Source: Candidatus Omnitrophota bacterium (GTDB taxonomy: Bacteria; Omnitrophota; Omnitrophia; Omnitrophales; Aquincolibacteriaceae). From it: a DNA stretch of 64,000 nt. Both the position numbers and the translations under genes were made by a program. Where the stretch lies: assembly GCA_022705945.1 (NCBI GenBank), contig JAKJDL010000005.1, positions 15,825 to 79,824 on the forward strand. Direction: 5' to 3'. Positions 15,251 through 15,966 of the stretch are shown in pieces. Position 1 is the first letter of the stretch. The number at the start of each line of letters is the position of its first letter. Under the pieces are notes generated by a model. It was given only the letters and a program-made list of their open reading frames with translations, was not told the origin of the DNA and did no database searches.

Positions 15251-15279
15251 TTGAATCCCTCCCGGCAGGATGCTATAAT
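15251..15279 (+). promoter_or_regulatory. Promoter for tRNA-Pro (TTGAAT-17-TATAAT, with TGc extended -10)
   Basis: TTGAAT at 15251-15256, 17-nt spacer, gaTGcTATAAT at 15269-15279, about 100 nt upstream of the tRNA. Confidence 0.55.
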
Positions 15280-15378
15280 GCGCTCCCTTAATTTAAGAGA
15301 TGCTGAGATTCAGGAAGGACAGCCGATACTTCGCCATCATCCCGAAAATTTTGGCGGTTCTTTTAGTGGAAATTAGAT

Positions 15379-15455
15379 CGGGGCGTAGCACAGCTTGGTA
15401 GTGCGCTCGGTTCGGGACCGAGAGGTCGGAGGTTCAAATCCTCTCGCCCCGACCA
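15379..15455 (+). tRNA. tRNA-Pro (anticodon CGG), CCA encoded
   Basis: Hand-folded cloverleaf. 7-bp acceptor stem CGGGGCG/CGCCCCG, D arm GCAC-AGCTTGGTA-GTGC, anticodon stem CTCGG/CCGAG with loop TTCGGGA (anticodon CGG), T arm GGAGG-TTCAAAT-CCTCT, discriminator A, CCA. Confidence 0.85.
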
Positions 15456-15727
15456 ATCTCTGTTGATTAAGTTTAATTCCGAAGGAAATAAACTTGTTTA
15501 TTGAGGATTGGTTGGCCCCTGGCCGACCAATCTCTGTTGATTAAGTTTAATTCCGAAGGAAATAAACTTGTTTATTGAGGATTGGTTGGCCCCTGGCCGA
15601 CCAATCTCTGTTGATTAAGTTTAATTTCGAAGGAAATAAACTTGTTTATTGAGGATTGGTTGGCCCCTGGCCGACCAATCTCTGTTGATTAAGTTTAATT
15701 TCGAAGGAAATAAACTTGTTTATTGAG
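15451..15727 (+). repeat. Tandem array of about 3.7 copies of a 74-bp repeat beginning inside the tRNA-Pro 3' end
   Basis: Units start at 15451, 15525, 15599 and 15673 (period exactly 74 bp). Each starts GACCAATCTCTGTTGATTAAGTTTAATT(C/T)CGAAGG.... Units 3-4 carry a C>T variant. Each unit has a 12-bp terminal inverted repeat (GGCCGACCAATC / GATTGGTTGGCC) and an internal hairpin AATAAAC-TT-GTTTATT. Confidence 0.9.
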
Positions 15728-15930
15728 TTTCAGATTCAAGCACACAAAGCTCTAACCCTCGATCTACGGTTGTTGCTATAATTTCTGAATCCATAAGCCC
15801 TCCCGCTGATTAGTTTCATCGTGTTGTGAAATCCTTCGGTATCCCGTGGATTTTGTGAAGTGCCGCATTCTGACGATCTCTTGATCGAAGGATTCCGGGA
15901 TCCATCCCCGTGGGTTAAGAACTGCGAAAG

Positions 15931-15966
15931 GGGCTCCGGTCCCCAAAATGTCCGGAGCCTTTTTAT
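15931..15966 (+). terminator. Rho-independent terminator (GGCTCCGG-loop-CCGGAGCC-TTTTTAT)
   Basis: Perfect 8-bp GC-rich stem with a 12-nt loop, followed by TTTTTAT. First strong terminator downstream of the tRNA-Pro/repeat array. Confidence 0.65.

Follow-up and report, generated by a model that had tools for sequence, protein, structure and literature searches.

The tRNA-Pro(CGG) locus and its tandem array

The only tRNA gene in the stretch of DNA analysed here (64 kb from Candidatus Omnitrophota bacterium, contig JAKJDL010000005.1 of assembly GCA_022705945.1; hereafter the window) is a tRNA-Pro(CGG) that lies between ftsI and rsfS, and it is followed directly by a tandem array of 74-bp units whose first bases are the last seven nucleotides of the tRNA itself (CCGACCA). 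A first-pass annotation, made by inspection of the sequence, had described a tRNA-Pro and a 74-bp tandem array starting within it, and ARAGORN, Rfam and Tandem Repeats Finder (TRF) agree on this arrangement. TRF reported a period of 74 bp, 3.8 copies, 99% matches and a score of 544 over positions 15449-15727; the start of the array thus falls 7 nt inside the tRNA, an overlap whose chance probability is ~4^-7. The features of the locus are collected in Table 1.

Table 1. Predicted features of the tRNA-Pro(CGG) locus, with positions in the window.
Feature	Positions	Strand	Evidence	Remarks
Promoter of the tRNA-Pro transcription unit, sigma-70-type	15251-15279	+	Promoter scan, 10/12 matches	TTGAAT-17-TATAAT, TG before the -10
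tRNA-Pro(CGG)	15379-15455	+	ARAGORN; Rfam RF00005, 65.8 bits	Encoded CCA
Unit 1	15456-15529	+	TRF; alignment; covariance model R1, 101.7 bits	C variant
Unit 2	15530-15603	+	TRF; alignment; model R1	C variant
Unit 3	15604-15677	+	TRF; alignment; model R1	T variant (T at 15627)
Unit 4, partial	15678-15727	+	Model R1, 55.1 bits	T variant
Interior hairpin H1, unit 1	15468-15496	+	Minimum-energy fold	UAAGUUUAAUUCC-GAA-GGAAAUAAACUUG, unit positions 13-41
H1, units 2, 3 and 4	15542-15570, 15616-15644, 15690-15718	+	Minimum-energy fold	
Junction hairpin H2	15505-15533	+	Terminator-like scan; fold	GGAUUGGUUGGCC-CCU-GGCCGACCAAUCU; 13-bp stem, 3-nt CCU loop
H2, further copies	15579-15607, 15653-15681	+	Terminator-like scan; fold	
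First canonical-looking intrinsic terminator 3' of the array	15927-15966	+	Folding; inverted repeat I11	Hairpin + UUUUU; arms 15927-15939 and 15952-15964

We chose a unit phase that starts directly after the CCA of the tRNA and ends in GGCCGACCA. In this phase the 74 nt comprise a 46-nt spacer or interior (X), which holds a conserved A/U-rich hairpin (H1); a short 'anti' segment, the complement of the tRNA end and trailer, which forms the 5' arm and loop of a second hairpin (H2); and a direct repeat (DR), GGCCGACCAAUCU (also written CCGACCAAUCU), which copies the last 7 nt of the tRNA and the first 6 nt of its trailer. The whole reads tRNA(DR)-X-anti-DR-X-anti-DR-X-anti-DR-X-unique sequence, and each unit ends in ACCA followed by AUCU, the same context as the tRNA's 3' end. 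The fourth unit has H1, lacks the 5' arm of H2 and continues straight into unique sequence; because DR-X runs on into unique DNA in this way, the partial unit is probably the original tRNA trailer. The two sequence variants described earlier were recovered, with C in the first two units (15479 and 15553) and T in the last two (15627 and 15701; unit position 24 in the present phase). The unit had also been called tRNA-sized, which does not extend to its structure: ARAGORN and Rfam found nothing tRNA-like in it and it has no acceptor pairing, so that a tRNA pseudogene or tRNA-like unit was rejected. A CRISPR array was likewise rejected, the 45-nt 'spacers' being identical except at one C/T site.

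The promoter that had been proposed for the tRNA was found by our scan, and TTGAAT or TTGAAA-17-TATAAT also lies upstream of tRNA-Pro in five relatives (L008, L009, L208, L220 and L223; L-numbers denote related loci). No canonical terminator was found between the tRNA and the array by the terminator scan, in agreement with the earlier observation. The first terminator beyond the array, originally placed at 15931-15966, is terminator-like by folding, though the consensus scan omitted the site, presumably because its loop exceeds the 3-8 nt limit of that scan; near the array, a canonical hairpin followed by UUUUU occurs only there and not at H2. Because the promoter is conserved and no canonical terminator precedes the array, co-transcription of the array with tRNA-Pro, as the first-pass annotation had supposed, is plausible.

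Two further sequences lie in the stretch between the array and the terminator. At 15774-15782, 47 nt past the array, TGCTATAAT forms an extended -10 element identical to the -10 of the tRNA and rsfS promoters, with no good -35; together with the terminator it could bound a separate predicted transcript of ~175 nt, for which the fold z-score is only -2.1, with no Rfam match and no counterpart seen in relatives. At 15752-15766, CTAACCCTCGATCTA shows 80% complementarity to the leader and tRNA 5' end (15374-15388) and loosely resembles the CCA-less tRNA-Pro 3' end (CCCCGA followed by TCT) that many relatives encode; it may be a chance resemblance or an old remnant.

Conservation, copy number and surroundings of the unit

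In an alignment of the two window variants with the homologous unit of L008, helix 1 of H1 (13 pairs) is paired in 92% of cells, and overall 93.9% of cells are paired, a share that falls to 56% or less on sliding the partners. Two pairs differ by compensatory changes between the window and L008 (A-U to G-C and C-G to U-A), and the T variant of the window represents the U-G intermediate of the C-G to U-A change, in which pairing is kept only in + strand RNA. This suggests that H1 has been kept through compensatory changes across genera, and because of these changes the unit RNA is probably under some constraint. The internal AATAAAC-TT-GTTTATT hairpin proposed in the first-pass annotation did not hold up: it is not part of the minimum-energy fold and its pairing is lost in L008, while H1 is conserved instead.

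H2, which spans each unit junction, folds at -21.6 kcal/mol (z = -5.7, with z = -4.7 for the whole unit). Its 3' arm, which duplicates the tRNA end plus trailer, is identical in the window, L008 and L208, and its 5' arm varies across the same three without compensation (UU, CC or U.UU). The 12-bp inverted repeat reported earlier is real and contains one G-U pair; its arms can pair across the full unit, as had been proposed for a long unit hairpin, but the same arms fold more locally across each junction as H2. The tail of H2 (CUCUGUUGAUU) has no U-run, and the hairpin was flagged as terminator-like by the permissive scan.

Homologous units are found beyond the window species. In L008, the ftsI of which is 71% identical to that of the window at the nucleotide level (78% at the amino acid level), at least three units of 75 bp lie directly 3' of tRNA-Pro, with a 100-N scaffold gap within them and a DNA methyltransferase gene thereafter. 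The units of the two loci are ~71% identical, matching the identity of the ftsI coding sequences, and the promoter-to-tRNA leaders (~92 nt in the window versus ~17 nt in L008) show no evident similarity by eye. In L208 (ftsI 92% identical to that of L008 at the nucleotide level), tRNA-Pro is followed by AAUCUUCU and then by a single H2 plus the initial ~14 nt of the interior. The short spacing from ftsI to the methyltransferase gene is shared by at least 12 further contigs of this type, and all eight of those read carry the identical single-H2 sequence. The unit is absent after tRNA-Pro in L009 and L223, whose FtsI sequences are 78% and 75% identical to that of the window. Because homologous units occur on both sides of the split, the sequences place the origin of the unit before the divergence of the window species from the L008/L208 clade; it has been homogenised within each genome and can be lost.

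The comparison of related tRNA-Pro loci for integrated elements, suggested at the outset, revealed variable 3' flanks and no integrase gene near the window array. In L009, 100 nt upstream of the intact gene, there is a truncated 5' copy of tRNA-Pro (6874-6930) that is ~57 nt long and breaks off in the T-arm, another sign of rearrangement at the locus. The flanks of tRNA-Pro also vary within the L208 species: a DNA methyltransferase gene (N6_N4_Mtase + RAMA) and three small open reading frames (ORFs) separate tRNA-Pro(CGG) from tRNA-Pro(UGG) in L208 (7840-11938), and an insertion of ~2.9 kb separates ftsI from tRNA-Pro in some strains (L209, 7646-10673; L214, 4099-5260), in which an HSDR_N-like gene overlaps the 3' end of ftsI.

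Assembly collapse or expansion is a concern that the earlier note had raised. The FtsI sequences of the window and of 'Candidatus Omnitrophica bacterium ADurb.Bin277' (GCA_002069035.1) are identical. In the latter assembly, contig 14 breaks off within unit 1, and contig 13 opens inside a C-variant unit that is followed by seven T-variant units (7.4 copies by TRF). Copy number is thus ~3.7-3.8 in the window versus at least 7.4 in another assembly of the same species. Among further short-read contigs of this species, two end at the locus, L003 within unit 1 and L002 within the tRNA, and a third, L005, begins in the final partial unit; breaks at the tRNA are likewise seen in L008-type contigs. 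The array is real and has been seen independently, and its length is either polymorphic or unresolvable from short reads; it breaks short-read assemblies of these metagenome-assembled genomes, from which its copy number is not to be trusted. In one more contig of the species (L007, positions 1-1230, GCA_033812995.1), an IS3-type element with HTH_Tnp_1 and rve transposase genes adjoins the sequence at a site corresponding to window position ~15898, between the array and the terminator and rsfS promoter; the contig ends within the transposase gene, and the array is not on it.

Searches for other copies of the unit were negative. None was found elsewhere in the window with up to three mismatches, and covariance model R1, run over 586 kb (the window plus related Omnitrophota loci), recovered only the array units and the L208 hairpin. 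Phage, plasmid and viral contig collections contained no match to the repeat. The exact junction hairpin had no match in a genome contig collection where the best ftsI is 78% identical, the species evidently being absent from it, and the unit interior had none among metagenome contigs, a collection that is incomplete here (one JGI contig was expected to match). The tRNA T-arm plus AATCTC trailer did find metagenome contigs, namely 120 unrelated tRNA-Pro loci, mostly from soil and none with the unit; the AAUCUC trailer is therefore not unique. Against Rfam, only tRNA was recovered, whether in the locus, in the entire window or in eight related loci, and cmscan over 15100-16200 with E-values up to 10 gave only tRNA and chance matches to miRNA models, with no RtT (RF00391).

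The genes within ~12 kb on each side are of a housekeeping nature (proB, proA, nadD, CNNM, ParA-like, dcw genes, rsfS, argS, miaA, hflX, tal-pgi and an amidase), and Pfam searches of the called genes found no integrase-family gene in this range; an approximate lambda-Int query likewise had no tblastn match in the window and loci L001-L087. The dcw (division and cell wall) cluster indeed stops at ftsI, as the first-pass annotation pointed out. The order mraZ-STAS-rsmH-ftsL-ftsI recurs in the gene-annotated relatives, however, and of the 45 loci scanned in relatives, most of which are labelled Omnitrophota, 33 have tRNA-Pro(CGG) after ftsI. A dcw cluster ending at ftsI and followed by tRNA-Pro is a lineage trait, and because it is lineage-wide the truncation is not linked to the array. 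Upstream of the cluster, at 7924-9024, the window encodes an unusual fusion of a ParA/MipZ-like ATPase to an AMPK1_CBM (glycogen-binding-type) domain, with homologues in L001, L208 and L220; in these three loci the fusion gene and two ORFs without a Pfam match precede the mraZ cluster, and in the window species a CT398-like coiled-coil/zinc-ribbon gene also lies before it.

Comparable elements in E. coli and in other Omnitrophota

The closest known analogues of the array, not named in the first-pass annotation, are the tRNA-linked repeats (TLRs) downstream of tyrT/tyrV in E. coli. Egan and Landy reportedly described them in 1978 as 178-bp repeats in 3.14 copies after tyrT/tyrV (rttR/RtT RNA), and to our knowledge these elements, known since that year, still have no accepted function. 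In MG1655 we find tyrV followed by 178 bp in 3.1 copies with 95% matches, each unit carrying AATCCTTCCCCCACCACCA, the 19-nt 3' end of tRNA-Tyr, and both rttR and tpr are annotated inside the array. More generally, the TLRs of E. coli occur in tRNA or rRNA operons at 1-5 per locus, their function is unknown, and their 3'-terminal 18-19 nt match exactly the 3' end of the gene upstream; the transcripts rrA, rrB and rrF, which follow rRNA operons, bind Hfq and CsrA in vitro (PMC8144298). The term 'tRNA-linked repeat' is rarely used in the full-text literature that we searched, which yielded nothing relevant on TLRs outside E. coli or on small RNAs of Omnitrophota.

The likeness to the E. coli TLRs lies in architecture. 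Both are tandem arrays on the strand of the tRNA that start inside its 3' end, both have units whose last bases copy the tRNA 3' terminus with its CCA, and both have a non-integer copy number of ~3-4 and lack a promoter of their own. The Omnitrophota array lies directly 3' of its tRNA, on the same strand and with no terminator between; transcription within the tRNA precursor has been shown for the E. coli elements and is predicted for this array, which would then share a single transcript with its tRNA. The differences are equally plain. The E. coli unit measures 150-178 bp versus 74 bp here, and it copies 18-19 nt of the tRNA versus 7, only CCGACCA being shared between the unit (GGCCGACCA) and the tRNA (CCCCGACCA). 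In the Omnitrophota array, unlike the E. coli repeats, the tRNA copy is paired with an inverted complement and gives a hairpin. Copy number falls within 1-5 repeats per locus in the window (3.7) and beyond it in the other assembly of the species (at least 7.4), so that array length varies between assemblies, and the array has no sequence or Rfam similarity to RtT and belongs to a different phylum. By its sequence layout the array is a TLR in architecture, but it falls outside the E. coli sequence family.

A release route like the one that we propose below for the 74-nt units is exemplified by 3'ETS-leuZ, a small RNA (sRNA) from the trailer of the E. coli glyW-cysT-leuZ precursor that is released by the RNases that mature the tRNAs (summarised in PMC8144298). 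Unlike the array, it is single-copy and non-repeat and has defined base-pairing targets.

Elements attached to tRNA-Pro(CGG) are also found in other Omnitrophota. After this tRNA, four loci carry an element of 180-270 nt (L220, 6915-7127; L039, 7108-7306; L041, 6993-7174; L014, 6949-7220), with a weak match to covariance model R2 in a fifth (L012, 7153-7255). It has a strongly conserved core of ~110 nt, which includes GGTTCAACAYTTGCAC...GTGCAAGTGCGATG, within a modelled region of ~140 nt, and the last 19-25 nt of the element repeat the tRNA 3' end, the direct repeat in L220 extending over 65 nt at 92% identity. RNAalifold predicts 40 pairs, four of them compensatory, in a fold where an acceptor-like closing stem joins the tRNA-end copy to a GGGCGGU upstream of it. 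The element has no Rfam family, and model R2 found no match in the window, including the sequence after the array (15728-15966). With the canonical TLR layout in the same phylum, it looks like a candidate for an undescribed structured RNA.

Other arrangements were seen at the 3' end of tRNA-Pro in this phylum. In eight loci from more distant Omnitrophota (L012, L013, L015, L016, L018, L021, L024 and L043), tRNA-Pro has no encoded CCA, and the first ~80 nt after it contain a hairpin, (A)UCGGGACCUGGC...GCCAGGCCCCGA(C/U)UUUUU, whose 3' arm repeats the acceptor 3' strand of the tRNA and whose 5' arm is similar to its 5' end; in L021 a tandem pair of these hairpins is present. Terminators made from a tRNA-end copy thus appear to recur among these relatives. 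In L013, L045 and L047, ~60-150 nt after tRNA-Pro, we observed a common block, GGATTTGAAGGGAGC...GCGGGTGGCC(G/T)ACC, for which no Rfam family reaches its gathering score.

Origin and possible roles of the array

On the evidence as a whole, we lean towards reading the array as a tRNA-linked tandem repeat, in which a module from the 3' trailer of tRNA-Pro(CGG) has been amplified head-to-tail. A fold-back or template-switch duplication may have produced both the anti-DR junction, with its inverted copy of the DR, and a second DR-X. From then on the array could expand and contract by unequal recombination between 74-bp units or by slippage, which the 29-bp near-palindrome would assist; this would account both for the 3.7 versus at least 7.4 copies and for the near-identity of units within a genome. 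Transcription from the conserved tRNA promoter would include the array in the tRNA-Pro precursor, and, since each unit ends in the tRNA's own context, every ACCA/AUCU junction is probably cut by the nuclease responsible for trimming the tRNA 3' end, which would yield 74-nt RNAs with two hairpins. Of the three options offered in the first-pass annotation, a processed small-RNA array fits best, given that H1 appears to be kept with compensatory changes at 71% ftsI identity. By analogy, the likeliest roles would be those of a stable by-product sRNA or of a module for 3' processing, protection or insulation, for instance insulating rsfS.

Several points weigh against this reading. The array is dispensable, being absent from L009 and L223 and reduced in L208, and the 3.7 copies in the window are not to be taken as the true number in the source genome. 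Only 7 contiguous tRNA nucleotides are copied, versus 18-19 in the TLRs of E. coli. The covariation in H1 is not significant, coming from two species only and being reached by 93 of 500 shuffles, and H2 is not cleanly supported as a helix in + strand RNA, the aligned sequences having a C-A mismatch in L008 and a U-C mismatch in L208. Dispersal was checked only within the 64-kb window and 586 kb of related loci, and we infer, on sequence features, both co-transcription and cleavage at the junctions.

Part of the same evidence could be explained if the array were a neutral minisatellite, a recent slippage product of the tRNA trailer that has no function of its own and for which transcription is irrelevant. 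Within a genome the units share 99-100% identity, assemblies differ in copy number, the array has been lost or reduced in close relatives, and 29-bp near-palindromes such as H2 promote slippage. The unit is, however, common to species with only 71% nucleotide identity in ftsI, between which it is itself ~71% identical with compensatory changes in H1, and the adjacent non-coding leader, unlike the unit, has no evident similarity left by eye; we consider a purely neutral origin unlikely, if worth keeping in mind. Much harder to sustain is a palindrome of the REP/BIME (repetitive extragenic palindromic/bacterial interspersed mosaic element) or MITE (miniature inverted-repeat transposable element) kind that landed beside the tRNA and was amplified there by chance. 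REP/BIME units and variable-number tandem repeats of the MIRU (mycobacterial interspersed repetitive unit) type are short imperfect palindromes or tandem units of 40-100 bp that are intergenic, variable in copy number and dispersed at many loci. The array shares the short imperfect palindromes and variable copy number, H2 being an imperfect palindrome of REP-like size, and the phase first chosen for the unit gives it 12-bp terminal inverted repeats. In the sequence searched, by contrast, it was seen only at the 3' end of tRNA-Pro and incorporates the tRNA's own terminus: no other copy occurs in the window (at most three mismatches) or the 586 kb (covariance model), the element sits exactly at that end in all three species, and its arm is the tRNA end itself. 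Nor is a target-site duplication of the MITE kind evident, the units abutting via the 3-nt CCU loop and the first left 'arm' being the tRNA. The REP/BIME option of the earlier note accordingly seems highly improbable within the sequence searched.

Repeated integration and excision at the tRNA-Pro 3' end, leaving attachment-site (att) duplications, was another of the original options, and the locus does have some of the expected marks: a tRNA-end copy in every unit, a truncated tRNA-Pro copy in L009, and a 3' flank that is a synteny breakpoint, where the window has rsfS, L008/L208 have a methyltransferase island and L220/L223 have DUF6485. Yet between the copies lie only the same 61 nt and no cargo, merely 7 tRNA nucleotides are duplicated, the inverted 'anti' arm would not be explained by att duplication, and the searches described above, for an integrase within ~12 kb on each side and in phage, plasmid and viral collections, gave no match; such scars seem a very unlikely origin. 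A functional element with multiple sites, in RNA or DNA, is also improbable, whether as a protein-titrating RNA (a CsrB/RsmZ-type sponge presenting the AAGGA of H1), as tandem weak terminators or as tandem mini-ORFs. The AAGGAAA at the apex of H1 is conserved between the window and L008, and the in vitro binding of Hfq and CsrA by rrA, rrB and rrF (PMC8144298) provides a precedent, but the GGA lies mostly in the stem and not in the loop, and approximate CsrA and Hfq queries found nothing by tblastn in the window and L001-L087, a result that is uninformative for the whole genome. H2 was scored as terminator-like by the scan, though it has no real U-tract. AAGGA-N7-TTG in each unit opens a frame of 16 codons in the window and 18 in L008, but the start is TTG, the C-terminus changes frame between species and the frame is absent in L208.

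If the array is a tRNA-linked repeat, as we favour, it is a modest curiosity and not a new kind of system. A bolder version, on which we would place little weight at present, takes the units as multi-copy genes for a 74-nt, two-hairpin sRNA matured by the tRNA-processing machinery, and perhaps as part of a wider habit in Omnitrophota of hanging structured RNAs that end in copies of the tRNA 3' end on tRNA-Pro(CGG), the other example being the ~140-nt RNA of L220, L039, L041 and L014. Were this so, tRNA-linked repeats would be a general bacterial route to sRNAs and not an oddity of E. coli, and the array would offer a second, independent system in which to study their role, for example in the titration of RNA-binding proteins through the AAGGA of H1. 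Even short of that, the presence of a TLR-like array in a distant, uncultured phylum, with H1 conserved between genera and with 19-25-nt tRNA-end copies in sister lineages, suggests that this architecture arises repeatedly and may be selected. It gives comparative leverage on the old puzzle of the TLRs, and points to a likely source of sRNAs that annotation pipelines have missed.

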